A stretch of 56,083 nucleotides of DNA, taken from positions 1 through 56,083 of the forward strand of contig NKIB01013524.1 in assembly GCA_002256025.1 (NCBI GenBank), in the 5' to 3' direction. Below the pieces are notes generated by a model, which saw only the letters and a program-made list of their open reading frames with translations, searched no databases and had not been told where the DNA came from. Source of the DNA: Asterionella formosa (lineage: Eukaryota). Shown here in pieces: positions 1 to 43,010 of the stretch. Position 1 is the stretch's first letter, and each line of letters opens with the position of its first letter. The position numbers and the translations under genes were made by a program.

Positions 1-373
1 TATCTGGTGGTATTTGGTGGTACCAGTTAAAAACTGTGAGCCACCGTTATTTTACTCCATCTTCCGACTGAAAATATTTGAGTAATTTATCAATCGAAAC
101 CTGATGCAAGTACGAAGAGTATGTTAGACAATGCACTCTACTCAACAGATGAGTAATCAGTTTTGATTCAGTGTACAAAGCCATGAAGATGTAATATTTT
201 CAAAGTTATTAAGATTGTTGCATAGCGGTGGCTTAGGGCCAATCTTAACAGAGATACAAATTATTTTTTGTTGTATCTTGAGAAAAAAAGAATCTTTACA
301 GAGATACATTTCACAAATATATCTCTGGAACGGTTGAAACAGTTAGCCGTCTTCTTTATGTCTCTGCAAACAT

Positions 374-726
374 GTGCATCAGACTCAACAACAAAATTGC
401 ATTGTGAGCTTCAATCATTCAATGTGTCTGACCATTATCATTGCTGTAACGACAACAACAAATCGTCCGGAAGAACCTGACAGTTGGGATGTCATTGACA
501 ATCTTGATAAAGAAGCGGAACAACAGAGCTTTTTGTTACTTGCAGCAGTTACATTATCATTTTTGGAGTCCTATGAACGAAACTCGAAGCCAGTGCGAAT
601 TCCAAAATGGGAGCATCAATGAATTGACTGGAATGAGCATGTTACAAAGCTTCTTCATGAGAATAGATTTCATCGTGAATATCACATGGCTGTCTCTTGA
701 AGCTTTCAATCAACTACTGAAACTCC
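374..726 (+). pseudogene. 5' remnant of a Harbinger-type (DDE_Tnp_4-like) transposase
   Basis: Across a stop and a frameshift it reads IDWNEHVTKLLHENRFHREYHM...SLEAFNQLLKL, resembling the N-terminal F-x-x-x-YRMS-x-x-x-F-x-x-L motif of Harbinger transposases; lies just inside the left TIR. Confidence 0.55.
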
Positions 727-739
727 ATTGACTTTCCAT

Positions 740-995
740 CACATCATTTGTGGACAAGAAATTATGTCGGGGGCTCAGCGTGTTCTTGACCCAGACTTGT
801 TGGAAGAGCGGGCCAAAGCATGAGGAATCGATGTATCGACAATTCAGGATTATGTGAACTTGTTCCGTAATGGTGCTCTTCCCCATGGTGGAGGAGGTAT
901 TGGACTCAAGCGTGTCGTTATGCAATTTTTAGGGCTGCCCAACATTCGAACGGCAGCCTGGTTCCCTCGTGACCCCAAGCGTCTGAATCCTTTAT
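740..995 (+). pseudogene. C-terminal fragment of cytosolic aspartyl-tRNA synthetase
   Basis: [82 protein letters not shown]: class II motif 3 and FPRDP tail; in-frame TGA at 821-823; no N-terminal part. Confidence 0.9.
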
Positions 996-1099
996 TAACG
1001 GTTGCCCAACCATATACTATTGGGTTCTTACCTACTGCATGCAGCCGTTGTCAGAAATGATTTGACAAATATAATGACATTTTTTACCTTACTGAGACA

Positions 1100-1677
1100 T
1101 TTAATTATAGAGTTTTCACCAGTAGGCTCGTTGCAGCGGTTGCAAATCAATAATCATAATCATCATGCTATCTCCGCCAATACCTTGTTGGGTAGATCAA
1201 TGATCCTCACTAATGATTTTATCTAGCATCTCAATTCCAATCTCTACTGGCGTCTTGGTGTCAATTCGCTCACTCACGTATTTTAACCGTCTGGTTGTTA
1301 GTGAGGCAATCCCAAATACCATCACAACCCAAAATAATGAATTCGTCATTTGGATGCAGAATCACCTAAACAATATCGGGTTCCATTGTAATCATTTGTC
1401 CTGCTGGGTGAGTTCCTGGAACATTTTTATTTTTCAGATGATCACCAATGGATCAAGAAATGTTCAAGTTTCCATTCACACGCCCGAATTGGTTGACAAA
1501 TCGACCAGCCTTGTGAATTCTATCAATTTCTCGATCTTGCTGTGGTTTGTGGTCGAAACTTAATGCTTCCGTCTTTCCACCCTCCCTATAAAGGACAGGT
1601 TGGGAATCCCCAGCATTCGCATCAGTTAGTGTACATCCAATGATAACCGCCACAATTGCTGTACAGCCGGCATGAAT
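1100..1677 (-). pseudogene. C-terminal fragment of a PP2C (PPM) phosphatase
   Basis: HAGCTAIVAV...ANAGDS...LSFDHKP...GRVNGNLNIS*SIGDLK...DEFIILGCDGIWDCL...GIGGDSMMIMIIDL, with several stops and a frameshift. Confidence 0.9.
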
Positions 1678-1679
1678 TT

Positions 1680-2450
1680 GGGAGCAGTTGCAGCATTTCT
1701 TTTCCTCTGATTCTTGGGAGGTTGTCCAAGTTTCTTAATAATCTGGTGGGGTCTTTCAGAATCGTCATCCAATAAAATATCAGCACCAGGAACTGGAGAT
1801 GGAAATGCAGACAATTGGGAAGGAGATAATTCGGAATCTGTACTTGAGTCATTGGCAATATCTTCTCTGGTAGTAGAAAGTTGCTTTGATAGTATTAGGC
1901 CAGGAGACTTCCTTGTTGATGATTCAGAAGTAAAGGGAGAGCCTTTTCTTTTCAGATACTTCTTTAGGCGAGGAGAAAACCTTGTTGATGATTCAGGAGT
2001 AACGGGAGCTCCGTTTCTTTTCAGATACTTCTTTGGTTCTTTTGATGACTTTTTGTTGTACCCCATCATGTCTCAAAGATCAAGAGTCTTTAACAAAACT
2101 CTTAATGAGTGTAATCATTATCATATTTGTTTTGTTTCTGTATCCGGCGATTTTAAAGTGAACGCGAATACAACGAAGTCGTTGTAGCGATATCTGTTGA
2201 ATGAGCATGTCTTTTATCGTCCTCAAAGACCCTTCATTGTCAATGAAAAAATCAGCAGGAGTGATACATGCAACCCACTGGTCATCCTGCTTCCTTGCTG
2301 CAGAGTAAGTTTCATTATCCGAAGATTCAAATAATGCCATTGCGTAAGTCGTTTACAAGTGATGAAAAGCATTATTTCATGAGTAGCTAGAGATAATAAT
2401 AATTGCTGCTGAGAATCACTCCTCCCAAAATACATTTCTGTTGTTGCCAT
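1680..2450 (-). pseudogene. Truncated second ORF (accessory/DNA-binding protein) of the Harbinger-like element
   Basis: Broken ORFs 2223-2450, 2080-2340 and 1626-2069, convergent with the transposase remnant; an internal duplication of about 69 bp; homologous to the relic at 44130-45060. Confidence 0.5.
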
Positions 2451-4249
2451 TAGAGATAAAAATGGTGTCTTTGTTGATTTATTTAATTACATGACATTTT
2501 TTAAATTTATTTAATTAATGTTGCTTCTCGCTATAACTGCAGCGATACACACAGAGACACATTTCAGAGCAACAAAAAATGTGTTGTTGGAAGCAACGTA
2601 TCACCCGGATATGTGAGATACAAAAAATTGGGCCAAGCAACAAAAAGTTGGGCCAAACAACATCTTTTTGATTTTTGTATCTGTGTTAAGATTGGCGCTT
2701 ACAGTGCATATTTTTCTATTCATACATGAGTATATTTCCTTTCAAACCGTGATTATTTTTACTCCGATTATACTACAGAAATTCTTTTCGTATTACTTTA
2801 TGCACCTGTTAGGCGTGACAGAATGATTTTTGTGCTTGCATCATCACCAAATGCTTCTGACGCATAATGTATTCGAAAGCAAAATGACCTCGTACCCCCA
2901 ATTAATTATACTAAAGTAATTCTATTGGAAGGACATTATCATTCTTGTACATATACCGGTGTCGGTGCACTTATAGAAAAGGCGATGCCAGCTCAATAGA
3001 GTAAACGTGAAAATATCCATCTTTCGTAATTTCGAGTCGGCTGCAACCTTTGGGCCGTAATAAGTATTTAGTTAACAGCTTACACAAAGCAACAATACAA
3101 GTACATAAGTATTGACTTGGTATATAAATCTGAACAACTCCTTTGTGACAATAATTAACATATCATGCAAACTAAGTTTTAATCGTGCGTTTACTCCTTT
3201 AGTGGTGCCTTACAGTTCAAAACTCGTCATAGCGGTGGCTTACAGTTTTAAACTGGTACTCTCTCTGGGCGAAATCAATTTCATCAAATCTTAAAATTTC
3301 TCCGGGGCCATTTTGACTCCTACGATTTTCTCCTGCAAAATTGCCCTTTAGTAGCTAGAGATCCATGAATATATTTTAATCATTTTTATTGTGCATTCTT
3401 ACTTCTGGTAGTCTATCTCTTGACTATGATGATGCTGGCAGTTACGAATTTCCAATCCCAACAACTTTGAAAAACTGCTGATTGAGATAGGTTGTTTTCA
3501 TCACTTCAGCCGGAAAAGGAGAACGATTTTGAGTTTGGAGAGAATAAAGGAACGTAAGCAATATTTGATTACCGGTACTTTTGCTTACTATTGCTTCGGG
3601 CCGCCCCTCTATTGCCCCGGCCATTGTCGTGTTTTCTTGACGTTTCCCTGTTCTGAAGAATAAAAATATTATGTAGCATGAAACCTAGTACGTCACTAAG
3701 TGGTGATCACCATGCATACAGATGATTTTGACGAGTGATCGAATTGATGATGTTTTTTATGTAATTAAGCGCCTGTCCTGCGTCACGTCATCAATTTCAG
3801 CAAAATAACAGCAACTTGCTGGTAACCAGGTAGTTCCAGTGCTACACCGAAATTACCGGCATAGTTCGGTACCAGGTACCTGGTACCAGGGACTAAGAGT
3901 ATCGAACCCTCCACCCAACAAGGCGACCCTACGAAAATGAGCACGAGGAGATAGTAAGAGGTGAATAAGGTTTATAATTGAACCAGAAGTCTCTAGGTAG
4001 TGCCAAATATAGTTGGAGTCGTGCAGTGTACCCCGCCAACTTGCCATCAGTTGTGATTGCCACTATCATCGCTTATTTGCGCAAGGTGAAAATGGTAAAC
4101 GGCCAATATTCTAAACTACAACATTAAACAGGGCTGAAAGTGACAAGAGTGTTAAGGAGGTTAAACAGTTACTGTCCCTGTTCAAGACACGAAAAGTGAC
4201 TCTAGCTAGCGCTTCGTTTCCAATTTTTTTTAATGGCCTGCAAGGGACC

Positions 4250-36900: not shown

Positions 36901-38234
36901 TGAAACATTTGAAATCATGGTTTCATGTTCCTTGTCATGCATACACTTTGCTCCTGAATTGAAGGATTAATACAGATGATGACGCGGAAAACGAAAGTGA
37001 TAATAAAGCACAATGATACTTGCGGCTTAGAAGAGAAGGGCGGAATCAATTGATGGTAAGTCACGAGCAAATGCGCGCCTTTCATGTTCCTTGTCATGCT
37101 GCATCCACTTCCTCAAATGAAGGATCTCATGCAACACATGATGCGAAAAACTGAAGTGACAATACAGCACGAAAAGATTGAGTGAATATGATGGAGAAGG
37201 GCGGAATCAACAAGCTGTGCATAGCCTCACGGTTTGTCAAGAGCAAATGCCAAGATGATCAATTGCTGGGATTACAAATACGGAATTACTCGTCCCCTTT
37301 CAGTGATTCAATAGCTCCTTTTCGATTTGGTGGCTGGCCAATGATCAAAGTGGACAAATGAAATTGGTAAGTGCTGCCTATCAGCCATCTTTGGATCAAT
37401 CCACAACTGTTAGAAAAACTGACACATATGTGTTGCTTCTTTCAGGATAATGGTAGACAAACAGTACTTGTAAGTTACAAAAAGCAGTGTTGGAGCCCAT
37501 TTAGTGATCGATACTTTGCTTCTCATTCAATCTTTGACTGACAAATTCTTCTACAGAAATATGCATCAGTTACTTCCTCAATTTGTGGTAAGTGAAGATA
37601 GAAGCAAAATGAATGTTGCTGTGTAAGCAAAACATGAACAGCAAACAATGAATTGCTTCTCTTTGTTATTATGATTGGGACAACGAAACGGATTGAATAG
37701 TAATAGGAAAATGCGTGAATGCAAACTCAGAACAACCCTCACGAGTATATGGAACAAATCAGGGGAACAACGGCAAGGCAACCAGCACAACAACCTTCAG
37801 AATTGGATTGGGGGAAGGTGGAAGTGAAAGCGGCACAAACAATCATTGCGATGAGAGCATTTTAGAACATTCTGTAGCCACTTAAGATATAGAATCATAG
37901 AACCATTCTTAGCTAAATATAGTTCTAAATTTCGATCAATTACATCCTATTTTAGACAGTGATATCGATGAGAATTACGATCATGCTAAGGTAGATGTAT
38001 GACAAAAGTATACACATCATATGACCATGTTTAACAAATTATATGATGCAATGGTATTATAACTATGATAGTCTCATCATACTTCAAGCTCGGTAAAAGT
38101 TTACTGCATGATCATAATTATATGATACATTGATCATATTTTTGATCGAAAAACTATCATTATGTGAAAATCCTGTGCCACTTAGCATACGATACCCTTG
38201 ATCATATTTTCATGATATTTTTTATTTACAGACG
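33977..38234. mobile_element. 4.26-kb TIR DNA transposon with TA duplication, nested in Copia gag; superfamily unassigned
   Basis: TIRs CGTCTGCAAATAAAAA and TTTTTATTTACAGACG; TA at 33975-33976 and 38235-38236; TGATCA/ATCAT-rich subterminal zones; decayed coding-like remnants at about 34200-35900. Confidence 0.88.
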
Positions 38235-38236
38235 TA

Positions 38237-41200
38237 CCTCGGATCATCTAAGCAGACATCTGATTATGAGACTACTACTGAGTACCTCATCAATCACATC
38301 AAAAAAGTGTTTGACTATGGCAACGACATAGGAACCGCGCTCAAGTTGTTTGAACCAATCAACACATCGGCATGGAAGCCAAGAATGCAAGTGAGCATTG
38401 CAACAACAACAGAAGAAGATCGCGCTGCAGAGAATCGACAATATGAGATTGAGTTCAAGGCTGACTATGACACCTACAGTAAAAGGGTACAGGCCTACGA
38501 AAATAATAAGACCAAGGCATATATGTTGCTCTGGGAAAGATGCAACAAAGCCATGAAGAACAAGATCAAAGCGAGATCTGATTACAATAGGATCGAAAAC
38601 AACCCAATAACATTGCTTATGGCAATTAAAGAACACGCATTAAATTTTCAAGAAAATCGATATTCTATGTCGATCATTTTAGATGCAATGAGAACACTTT
38701 TATTTACAAAGCAAAAGGGAGGAGAAAGTCTACAAGACTACACGAAGAGATTTCGTGTGGCACGAGATGTGCTCAAGTCACACATGAGAGGACCCATTAT
38801 CCTCACCAAGTTTGTTGAAGCCATGGATGGGTACAACGAGACTGACATCAAGCTACAAGATAAATTTCGTGAACAAGCTTTCAGTCAATTTATGGCCTAT
38901 TTATACCTCGATAATGCAGATAAAGCCAAATATGGATCAATTATGACCGGGCTGAACACTCAACAATCACTCGGCAACAATCAATACCCGAAGACCATCA
39001 CCGAATCAAATAATGTTCTCAGCAACCATCGGTTTGACGTGATAAATAGACCCAACAGTCACAAGAAACCAGGAGATCATGATAAAGACAGAGAACAAAA
39101 GGATGCAGGGATGGAAGACGAAGATGTGAACTTATTGTTCGCACAGTTAGAAGGAAAATGTTACTGCTGCAGAAAAGCAGGTCACAAATTCCCTTTGTGC
39201 CAAGACAAGAATAAACCCAATGAGGAATGGGCAATCAACAAGGCCCAAAGCCGTGCACAGGCACAGGCTTCTACGTCGGAGACGAGTACAGTTACCTCTG
39301 TTAATTCCAACAACCCACCGTCATCACAAGGTCCACAACAAGCAAATGTCAATCAATTTGGATGGGCGGGAGCTCATATGAAACTACAATTTTACCAAGC
39401 ATCTGAGATGCGTGACTGGATACTATTGGATAATAAATCAATTGTTACAGTCTTTTGCAATCCAAAAATGGTTGATAACATTCGAATGTCAACCAATGGA
39501 AGAATGCACCTGGCCACAAATGGTGGATCCATGGTCACTAATATGAAGGCTGATATTCCACAATGGGGAGAAGTATGGTTTAATGAAAAGGCAATCACAA
39601 ACATCTTCAGTTATGCCGAAATGGCAGATAGTAGGTACAGAATTACCTATGACTCTGAGAAAGAAGATGCATTTATTGTTCATTTGCCTGACAAACCAGT
39701 TCGATTCGAAAGAATTGGGATGAATTGTCTTTATATGTTTTCAAGCCTCCTACAACAATTAAGGCGCAGAATGCTCAAATGCTTATACAGTTGAAGAGAA
39801 CAAAACATTTTACACTGAACGTCAATTTGAGAGAGCTAAGCGAGCTCGTGATCTATTTCGTGCCTTGGGTACACCATCAATTAATGATTTCGAGGCAATA
39901 ATTCGTATAAATACGATCAACAATAATCCAGTGACTACCGATGATATCAAAATTGCAGAGAAAAGTTTTTGACCTGACATTGGAACACTAAAAGGCAAGA
40001 CAACTCGTCGCAAGCCGCTGCCAGTTGTGAACAACTACATCGAGATTCCTAAGGAGCTTATTCGAGCTCAACGCGAAGTTACTCTTTGCATGGATGGAAT
40101 GAAAGTCAATGGAGAATCATTTCTCACAACAATTTCTCGAAACATTATGTATATGACAGCGCAATGGGTCAAGAGTCAGACAGCTGAAGTCTATCGAGAT
40201 GCTTTGACTCAGGTATTCCGTATTTATAATACCAGAGGATTTAAAATTACAACAATCCACTGTGACAACGAGTTTCGACCTTTGATGGAACAAATTTCCA
40301 ATGAATTTCAAGTCACTATGAACTACGCAAACCCACAAGAACATGTTCCTGAAGCGGAACGAAATAATCGAGTGATTAAAGAAAGCGTGCGCGCAGCTTA
40401 TCATCGATTACCTTTCAAATATTTGCCAAGACTGATGATAAAGGTTCTAGTCTCAGAATCTGCAAAGAAACTGAATTTCTTTCTGGCAAAGAACAAGATA
40501 TCCCCATTTTACAGTCGTCGAATGATTTTACATCAACAAAACCTGGACCATGCTCGAAATTGCCAGAATGCATTTGGCACTTATGTCCAAGCACATGAAG
40601 AATCTGTGTTTTCAAACACTAATGCACCACGCAGCCTAGATTGCATTTATCTACGCTACAATGACAACGTGCAAGGAGGTCACGAATCATTACACCTACC
40701 TGCAAATTCACTGATCACTAGACAAACAGTTACTACTCTACCACTTACCCCAGCAATCATGAATCAAATACAAGCCCTTGCTGTGCAGGAAAATATGCCA
40801 GACGGACTCAAGATATCAAATCGAACGGGACAACTATTTTATGATAGTGCTTGGATTGCAGGAATGGATTATGATAATGAAGCATTTGAAGATGCACAAG
40901 ATGAAGATTATGAAGATCAACATGCTAGTGACGATGAAAGTAATGATGAAATTCTCGGAGAAGAAGACTATTATGAAATGACTCCAGATGAAATATATGA
41001 AGCAGAACAGCTTGAATTAAACAACAATATCCAAGAGGATGACCCTGAACCTGAGGGCAACAACGAATATAATGTTGAAATGAATGCAGATGAATTCCAA
41101 GATAAGGATGAAGAGCCAGTAAATGAAACTGAAAATAAAGAGGCAATGTTAGAATTCATTCCAAGCACTCAGGATGCCACAGACCCAAATGTTAAAACTA

Positions 41201-43010
41201 AAAGGTCTGGAAGAGTCTCAAGACCACCATCAAAACTGGCTATGGTCCAACATCATTTACATACCCAAGCACACTATCAAGAAGAATACACGACTGATAA
41301 TGCGAAAGTGATCGCAATGACAATGTGTTATATGAATGAGATGTCTACTATCGATAAAGAAGCATTTCACTTTGTTCAGTCATACAGCTTAAGAAAAGGC
41401 CTCAAAAACTTTGGCCAGAAAGGAAGAGACGCTGCTTATATAGAAATGAAACAACTACATGATAGAGTTGTATTTGAACCGATTAGGATTGAAGACCTAC
41501 TAACTGAGATCGAAAAGCGACGTGCAATGGAAACAAGTCTAATTTTTTTGGTTGAAAGGCGAGACAAGAGTATGAAAGGCAGAGCTTGTGCCAATGTCAG
41601 TTCGCAACGTCGTGAATACATGGAAAGAGATGAAGCAGCTAGTCCAACGACCACGAATGAATTTTCTGTTATGATAGCTAACAGCAACAATTGATGCGAA
41701 GCAAAATCGCGATGTTATGACTTCAGATATACCCAATGCATTTGTGCAAGTGGAGGATATCGATGAGAAAGAAAAAGGGGAACGAATCATTATGAAGATT
41801 AGAGGTTTGCTTGTCACTATGTTGACATAACAGGCTTATGAAAAATATGTTGTTAGTGAAGGGAACAACAAAGTCCTATATGTTAGGATGATCAAGGCAT
41901 TATATGGCATGTTATAGTCATCATTGTTATATTACAAGAAATTTCGGAAGGATATTGAGTCAATTGGATTCAAGGTCAATCCATATGATCCATGCGTTGC
42001 AAATCGCATTAAGGCAAACAGCACACAGTTACTTGACACATAGACGATTTGAAATCTAGTCACATGGACAGCAAAGTGAATGATCAATTTTTGGAATGGC
42101 TCAAAAAGAAATACGCTTCTGACGATATTGGTGAATTCAAGGTCATGCGTAGAAAGAAGCATGCTCATTTGGCAATGACACTAGATTACTCTCTTCTAGG
42201 AGTGTTGAGGGTGGATATGACCAAATATGTGAAATCAATGATTGATGATTTTCCAGAGAAACTTGAAGGTGTTGGAAAATTCCCATCGACAGATAAATTG
42301 TTCACAGTTGAGACGAAATCAAAGAAGCTTAAATATGAAAAAGCAAAAATATTTCATACTTTTGTTATGAAAGGAATGTTCCTATGTAAGCGAGGAAGAC
42401 AGGACATTCAACCAGGAATTGCATTTCTGGCAACCCGATCTACCAAACCAATGAAGGCGATTGGGCAAAATTAGTCAAGATCATGAATTTCTTGAAAGCA
42501 ACTCAGAAGGGGGTTGCATCTATGAGTGCTGATGACACTCAGAGTATTAAATGGTACGTTGATGCGGCGTTTGCAGTACACAAAGATTTTAAAAGGCACA
42601 CAGGAGCTACACTGTCACTTGGAAAAGGAATTATTTGTTTTATGTCTACTAAACAGAAAGTGATCACTAGAAGTTCGACTGAAGCAGAATTGGTTGGTGT
42701 CGATGACATTATATCAAAGGTGTTGTGGACTAAATTATCTATTGAAGCACAAGGACACAAGGTGACTACGAATGTCATTTACCGTGACAACACTAGCGCA
42801 ATGAAGCTAGAAGCAAATGGAAAAGTAAGTTCAGGAAAACGCACGCAACATTTCAACATCAGGTATTTTTACATTACTGATTTTATTGAAAGAAAGGAAG
42901 TACAAATTAAGTACTGTCCAACGGATGCAATGATTGCAGATTACATGACAAAACCACTGGTTGGAGCGAAATTTATTCATTTTCGTCAGCAAATAATGAA
43001 TTCAAAGTGA
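38237..43010 (+). pseudogene. Copia gag-pol polyprotein with frameshifts and stops
   Basis: Zinc knuckle CYCCRKAGHKFPLC, protease WILLDNKS, integrase IHCDNEF...EHVPEAERNNRVIKE, RT (DIPNAFVQ, KALYG, NPYDPCVAN), RNase H WYVDAAFAVH...SSTEAE...DNTSA...ADYMTKPL. Confidence 0.93.

Follow-up and report, generated by a model that had tools for sequence, protein, structure and literature searches.

A Pack-type PIF/Harbinger element with fragments of an AspRS gene and a PP2C gene in a contig of Asterionella formosa

We analyzed a 56,083-nt contig of Asterionella formosa (NKIB01013524.1 of assembly GCA_002256025.1; positions 1 to 56,083 of the forward strand, hereafter the window) and describe here the transposable element at 236-2698. 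It is a Pack-type element: a non-autonomous element with terminal inverted repeats (TIRs) that holds fragments of a host aspartyl-tRNA synthetase (AspRS) gene and of a host PP2C gene. It is a PIF/Harbinger element whose middle was probably replaced, by gap repair, with a single block of host DNA from a convergent AspRS/PP2C pair. The parts of the element are listed in Table 1.

The two host gene pieces lie tail to tail in the center of the element. The plus-strand translation of 701-1060 matches tRNA-synt_2, the Pfam family of class II D/K/N synthetases, at profile positions 224-307 of 308 (E = 3e-18), and the AspRS piece has up to 80% amino acid identity to AspRS genes from metagenomes. On the minus strand, 1453-1734 and 1198-1452 match the PP2C family of Pfam (E = 2e-23 and 7e-13, respectively; profile positions 90-230 of 255), and tblastx prolongs the PP2C homology to the C-terminal QGIGGD...DLQP..Y box at 1187-1122. 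Full-length orthologues of both cargo genes were found in relatives. The cargo block measures 951 bp, with its left junction at about 721-727 and its right junction at about 1677. An original prediction, made by a model from the sequence, had identified this region as the 3' ends of AspRS (+) and PP2C (-), and the Pfam matches and junctions agree with it. The same prediction had the two genes about 100 bp apart; two gene ends with a spacer between them are indeed present, and the distance that we measured is ~121 bp. We saw neither a third junction nor element-derived sequence between the AspRS and PP2C pieces, and no second copy of the cargo genes lies within the 56-kb window.

Table 1. Parts of the element and its target-site duplications, in window coordinates.
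Feature	Position	Strand	Evidence or remark
Left TTA target-site duplication	233-235	.	Sequence read; single-TTA empty sites
Left TIR	236-260	+	23/25 match to right TIR
Left subterminal region, upstream of transposase start	261-421	+	Second copy of TIR-core motif at 291-308 (repeat family D11)
Transposase, first ~100 codons, PIF/Harbinger-type	422-726	+	63-90% identity to P0001-P0004
AspRS, last ~90 codons, cytosolic-type	727-991	+	tRNA-synt_2; homology may begin at 721
Spacer between gene ends	992-1115	.	~121 bp from stop position to stop position
PP2C, last ~185 codons, from IHAGCTA to the stop at 1116-1118	1116-1677	-	Pfam PP2C; tblastx against syntenic PP2C genes
Second gene, first 107 codons (ATG 2069-2067)	1678-2069	-	Matches P0154/P0155
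Right subterminal region, upstream of second gene	2070-2673	-	Short direct repeats (families D6, D8, D10)
Right TIR	2674-2698	-	Inverted-repeat pairing with 236-260
Right TTA target-site duplication	2699-2701	.	Sequence read; empty sites

The cargo is flanked by the 5' parts of the element's own two genes, and here too the original prediction, which had the transposase on the plus strand and an accessory open reading frame (ORF) on the minus strand, was borne out. On the left, the four database proteins P0001-P0004 run on past the junction (...NQLLELLRPSITVN). They read ...SLEAFNQLLELLRPSITVN...LRWLAGG..., and the window instead reads ...SLEAFNQLLKLH followed by a stop codon. A phmmer search with P0001 gave 1252 matches at E <= 0.001, and 14 of the 150 that were listed were run against Pfam. 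All nine of the scanned matches with at least 300 amino acids contain DDE_Tnp_4 (PF13359), downstream of the matched region, and five of these nine full-length relatives match Plant_tran as well. Running both arms directly against Pfam gave no match, as expected for N-terminal pieces. The element has only the ~100 N-terminal codons and lacks the DDE_Tnp_4 domain; it is therefore non-autonomous. P0003 reads through window positions 272-334, starting 12 nt inside the left TIR, and then continues as an uninterrupted transposase. Thus, the same left end precedes an uninterrupted transposase elsewhere.

On the right, the minus-strand frame of the element matches residues 1-107 of P0154 (416 amino acids) and P0155 (415 amino acids), up to ...NAATAPK, and diverges from them thereafter. 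P0156 reads through part of the right subterminal region. The second gene of Harbinger elements typically encodes a Myb/SANT-like DNA-binding protein, and searching the Atlas with P0154 gave weak leads, with scores of 0.79-0.80, to Myb_DNA-bind_4 clusters (we treat scores below 0.9 as leads only). The AlphaFold model of P0154, which was built from a five-row alignment, was unusable (predicted local distance difference test score of 34). No relatives of P0154 were found in the collections of viral contigs and genome contigs. Within this arm, 1895-2032 is a 69-bp tandem duplication whose units are 87% identical. It adds 23 residues to the second gene and is missing from P0154-P0157. A contig from X2, one of the sequencing runs introduced below, covers 1878-2079 with only 3 gaps, which suggests that the duplication is present in other copies.

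The ends of the element are those of a PIF/Harbinger transposon: it has short TIRs and a 3-bp TTA duplication, which is of the TWA type. A start of the GGGCC type is typical of PIF/Tourist ends. The TIRs are 25 nt long, as originally predicted, but are not fully intact, as they mismatch at TIR positions 2 and 15. Allowing up to 3 mismatches, the TIR pattern occurs at just these 2 sites in the window (100 shuffles gave 0 matches), and it had 0 matches in the collections of genome contigs and viral contigs. Also, comparing the element to the window with blastn revealed no sibling elements inside the 56 kb.

To see the site without the element, we can turn to contigs from four public sequencing runs, with algal and freshwater labels (X1, X2, and X3 are among them), which were aligned to window positions 1-3400. 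Many flanking-repeat contigs, from each of the four runs, pass from 235 directly into CAGTGCATATTT, which corresponds to the window from 2702 onward, with a single TTA. A joint from 230 to 2697 is found in 12 contigs of X1, 3 contigs of X2, and 1 contig of X3. A sequence that resembles the target, CATAGCGGTGGCTTA, also stands uninterrupted in the window at 3228-3242 (repeat family D12) and is followed by CAGT. Because of the empty-site contigs, the joint, and the intact look-alike, we conclude that the element at 236-2698 is a genuine insertion with a 3-bp TTA duplication, as the original prediction had it.

The DNA around the insertion site (1-235 and 2702-3400) is a high-copy repeat, whose depth reaches that of the element's arms in all four runs. 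Inverted repeats of 31 nt, which are 90% complementary, lie in it at 20-50 and 3229-3259, and GGTACC occurs near 19-24, at its left end. Copies of a TIR-like motif occur at 221-235, 3200-3227, and 3230-3257, and the Harbinger element is inserted within one of them.

We used gene order in relatives to examine how the cargo arose. Searching metagenome contigs with the AspRS cargo piece retrieved 80 loci, with a best amino acid identity of 80%; these are orthologues, and neither the donor nor a sibling element is among them. Of the 80, 24 are at least 66% identical to the cargo piece. Synteny is testable in 15 of the 24, which extend 900 nt or more in the downstream direction. A PP2C similar to that of the cargo is present at eight of the 80 loci. 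In six of the 15 testable loci (L001, L004, L007, L011, L012, and L015), a convergent PP2C lies just downstream of AspRS. L011 and L012 are near-identical, so these are five distinct convergent relatives, and they include the closest AspRS locus of all (L001, with 80% identity). The convergent PP2Cs are 65-69% identical to the PP2C of the cargo. The stop-to-stop spacings at the six loci are 115, 122, 122, 271, 368, and 2161 bp, as compared to ~121 bp in the window. Capture in one block, from a convergent AspRS/PP2C locus, is well supported by these results: because the orientation, the identity of the genes, and the spacing all match a natural pair, capture in one piece is much likelier than two events. 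As the cargo spans two genes and the spacer between them, it preserves the order in which these genes stand at the donor locus.

The original prediction was that one template switch at the DNA level had copied the convergent pair en bloc. Capture en bloc agrees with the six convergent relatives among 15, and with the spacing (~121 bp, versus 115-122 bp in the most similar loci). That the template was DNA is less certain, as an intron is missing from the cargo. In L001, L004, L011, and L012, the PP2C gene has a GT..AG intron of ~90-110 nt right after ...PDIxQ; L007 and L015 do not have it.

To find copies of the chimera, we searched for PP2C sequences with the minus-strand ORF that crosses the right junction as the query. 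This returned 47 PP2C fragments, of which the closest are P0158 (91% identity), P0198 (89% over part of its length), P0161 (85%), and P0174 (82%). The window and these four sequences share the derived motif AGRF, which is absent from all 48 other PP2C sequences that we compared (43 more hits from the database and 5 translations of syntenic pieces); the others that have the motif read AGGF. In a quick tree that kept all 53 rows and was built after the out-of-frame start of P0198 had been cut off, the window and the four sequences form one group (Shimodaira-Hasegawa-like approximate likelihood ratio test support of 97). The first 24 residues of P0198 are identical at 20 positions to an out-of-frame translation of window positions 1696-1625, which span the junction between the accessory gene and PP2C. 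Beyond the junction, P0198 is 89% identical to the window in the PP2C frame. P0198 therefore comes from an independent JGI contig, of 1337 nt, with the same right junction. Both P0174 and P0198 carry defects of their own and are therefore copies, not the donor gene. Because AGRF is common to four other decayed copies, and because the right junction is common to P0198, the chimera appears to have been copied after the capture.

These four proteins are gene calls on decayed Pack copies in public protein collections. A PP2C domain from Pfam is precomputed for all four, and the source of P0198 names it a PrpC-type phosphatase.

The sequencing runs also contain variants of the cargo. At places between 733 and 1154 of the cargo, 17-29 contigs from X1 have tabulated variants, and there are 7-8 such contigs at 1290 and 1294. 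At position 1063, in the spacer, 26 X1 contigs have another letter. The summed depth of X1 contigs is ~25,000-59,000 over the cargo; over the arms, it is 146,000-382,000, or about 3- to 15-fold higher, and the same trend is seen in the other three runs. This fits with cargo-bearing copies being a minority subfamily of a larger element family. In one X1 contig, 504 is followed by 1752, with 34 letters of unrelated filler at the joint; this contig represents another internal-deletion derivative of the family. We also considered RNA contigs from X12 (records 12 and 13) that lie over the cargo. These match as whole short contigs and bridge no junction, so they show neither expression nor origin.

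The copy in the window is decayed. In the left arm, there is a TGA at 620-622, and 4 bases at ~687 are missing from 24 X1 contigs (depth 35,074 of 82,957). The AspRS piece has a frameshift near 736-745 and a TGA at 821-823, and its stop codon is lost at 992-994. Nearly all contigs have G at position 823 and so read TGG where the window reads TGA. The PP2C piece is interrupted by a TGA at 1450-1452, a TAG near 1366-1368, and a further stop at 1194-1196; its frame shifts near 1283, and its conserved AGGF motif has become AGRF. Siblings have arginine at 1450-1452, and P0174 has glutamine at the TAG near 1367. Comparison with siblings and relatives thus points to ordinary substitutions as the source of the stop codons in the window's cargo. 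The copy in the window encodes nothing functional.

How might such an element have formed? Under the explanation that we consider probable, the parent would have been ~3.5-4 kb long, with a transposase gene on the plus strand and a convergent gene for the 416-amino-acid companion protein on the minus strand. About 2 kb of its middle, including the 3' parts of both genes, would have been lost. In its place, a host locus with AspRS and PP2C tail to tail, ~120 bp apart, would have supplied 951 bp, copied as a single piece. Most likely, excision left a double-strand gap whose repair was abortive: repair synthesis may have moved from the sister copy to an ectopic host locus and then back, which would create two junctions in one event and leave the donor genes intact. 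The template would have been DNA instead of RNA. We favor gap repair with template switching because both ends of the element were kept, the middle was lost, and one foreign block is found instead. With ~490 bp to the left of the cargo and ~1020 bp to its right, the chimera would have retained both ends and could have been mobilized by a transposase supplied in trans; several copies of it were made. The copy in the window would then have inserted at a TTA in another high-copy repeat and decayed.

Several observations weigh against this explanation, or against parts of it. A downstream PP2C was not seen in nine of the 15 testable loci (L003, L005, L008, L013, L014, L017, L020, L022, and L023), and in two more distant loci (L027 and L031), a PP2C that is 52-53% identical lies downstream on the same strand, which is a tandem arrangement. 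We infer the linkage of AspRS and PP2C in the donor from relatives, not from this organism's own locus. The cargo lacks the PP2C intron that is present in four of the six syntenic relatives. For the structure of the parent, and for the link between the TIRs and the transposase, the evidence comes from protein fragments whose frames extend through subterminal sequence. P0154, the relative of the companion gene, had no Pfam match at E < 0.01 and no recognizable Myb/SANT domain. Finally, the copies counted in the metagenome contigs may in part be alleles or strains instead of separate loci.

The missing intron raises the possibility that the template was a spliced PP2C transcript that was read through the spacer and into the antisense strand of the last exon of AspRS, and that was either reverse-transcribed or used directly as a template for repair. 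The cargo runs uninterrupted from ...PDIV(Q) into VILHPNDEF, where L001, L004, L011, and L012 have the ~90-110 nt GT..AG insert. Also, the nearest genuine PP2C fragments, P0159 and P0181, stop at ...PDIVQ, as they would if an intron with an in-frame stop came next. Both ends of the cargo lie just inside exons, ~15 and ~24 nt from the AG acceptors of relatives. On the other hand, of the five distinct relatives with this synteny, two (L007 and L015) have no such intron, so the donor may lack it too, and the spacer (992-1115) has no run of A or T. This route requires a read-through transcript as well as a reverse transcriptase step, and taking up filler at the DNA level during gap repair is the standard route for derivatives of this kind. 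Overall, we consider an RNA template to be unlikely. If it is true that the missing intron reflects the donor, then a DNA transposon would have been filled from a spliced read-through transcript.

Two other explanations seem less probable still. A contiguous block of host DNA could also result if two neighboring elements, inserted in or next to the AspRS and PP2C genes, fused: their inner parts would have been deleted, and the outer TIRs would have moved the host DNA between them. Fusion is the favored model for Pack-TYPE elements of plants and is proposed and illustrated for Pack-PIF and Pack-CACTA families (PMC8903248). But for the element in the window, insertions would have had to occur in or near an essential single-copy gene and to be followed by two separate deletions, each of which stopped within a transposon gene. 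The arms correspond exactly to the 5' parts of both genes of a single element and complement each other, and with only 2 TIR sites in the window, there is no remnant of an internal TIR. So, fusion strikes us as quite improbable. The least probable explanation, which would surprise us greatly, is that AspRS and PP2C were unlinked, were captured separately, and came to lie tail to tail by chance. The nine related AspRS loci without a downstream PP2C would be in keeping with this, as would a donor locus that is known through relatives only. However, the orientation of the pieces and their 121-bp spacing match the natural spacing of 115-122 bp in L004, L011, and L012, and the PP2C next to AspRS in relatives is of the same type as in the cargo (65-69% identity). 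Nor is there a third junction, or any element sequence, between the two pieces.

We also examined the junctions of the cargo for signs of microhomology. The original prediction was that AACTCC at 721-726, which can be read as either transposase or AspRS, might be junction microhomology. The AspRS serine at this place is encoded by AGC or AGT in 12 of 15 relatives and by TCN in the other 3, and the ...LLELL... of sibling transposase proteins would fit a transposase sequence that extends through 725-726. With 12 of the 15 relatives lacking a TCN serine codon, the overlap cannot be affirmed. At the right junction, an overlap of only 1-3 nt seems possible. Both ends of the cargo lie shortly downstream of intron acceptor sites of relatives: ~15 nt for AspRS (AG acceptors in L008, L011, L012, and L015) and ~24 nt for PP2C (in L011, L012, and L015). 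This could be a coincidence or a hint about the choice of template.

Several known systems resemble this element. Pack-MULEs and Pack-CACTA elements are DNA transposons that amplify fragments of host genes they have picked up, which are usually pseudogenic. They belong to other superfamilies, with different TIRs and with duplications of 9 bp or 3/5 bp. The cargo of the element in the window is from one contiguous locus, whereas a Pack-MULE often joins pieces of multiple loci that are not linked. Ds elements, which derive from Ac, and defective P elements have kept their ends and lost their middle, and usually have short filler that was copied at short or patchy homology during gap repair. The element in the window has the same layout, with ends kept, but its filler is 951 bp long and contains parts of two genes.

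The closest likeness is to the Pack-PIF elements of plants. The original prediction had considered gene capture to be little described for PIF/Harbinger, but passages of PMC8903248 describe Pack-PIF families in maize and rice, with TTA/TAA duplications, multi-copy clusters, and gene pieces of 58-260 bp. As presented there, Pack-PIF elements (such as Zm-Pack-PIF cluster #18; Gisby and Catoni 2022, PMC8903248) are similarly non-autonomous, with TIRs, TTA/TAA duplications, internal fragments of host genes, and multiple copies. They differ in that their hosts are plants, most are a few hundred bp long, and their gene pieces are those of 58-260 bp (PMC8903248, same passages). The element in the window is 2.46 kb long, retains ~100 codons of each of its own genes, contains a 951-bp block from two genes, and resides in an alga-like host. 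We conclude that it is an expected extension of the Pack-TYPE elements and not a new kind of element.

In diatoms, Harbinger-like elements are reported from Thalassiosira pseudonana (PMC2806351). They are of the same superfamily, and the passages that name Harbinger do not mention gene capture (PMC2806351); we liken them to the element in the window by description only. A full-text search of the literature revealed no paper that pairs Pack-TYPE elements with diatoms. The papers found for diatom, gene capture, and DNA transposon together have at most two mentions each of diatom or gene capture.

As for the rest of the window, it also encodes an MGDG synthase, the nuclear complex I 51K subunit, and an mTERF protein. 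By appearance, the host is a photosynthetic eukaryote and alga-like. At 38202-43010, there are long open frames on the same strand, of 530, 573, 145, and 206 amino acids, with no Pfam match at E <= 0.01. These frames have a CCHC-like knuckle and a Copia-like C-terminal stretch and so resemble a retrotransposon polyprotein, which we take as a candidate assignment only.

It is tempting to consider what the cargo could do. The chimera could be something other than debris: the element's two promoters point toward each other, with the cargo in between, and might produce complementary RNAs over the 3' parts of AspRS and PP2C, so that amplified copies could feed small RNAs against both of these housekeeping or signaling genes; this would also be the first Pack-type PIF/Harbinger family outside of plants in the literature that we searched. 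We view this as doubtful speculation. For annotators, decayed pieces of AspRS and PP2C, and their siblings in freshwater metagenomes, can pass for gene fragments. More broadly, the element shows that PIF/Harbinger transposons capture and spread fragments of host genes outside of the land plants as well.

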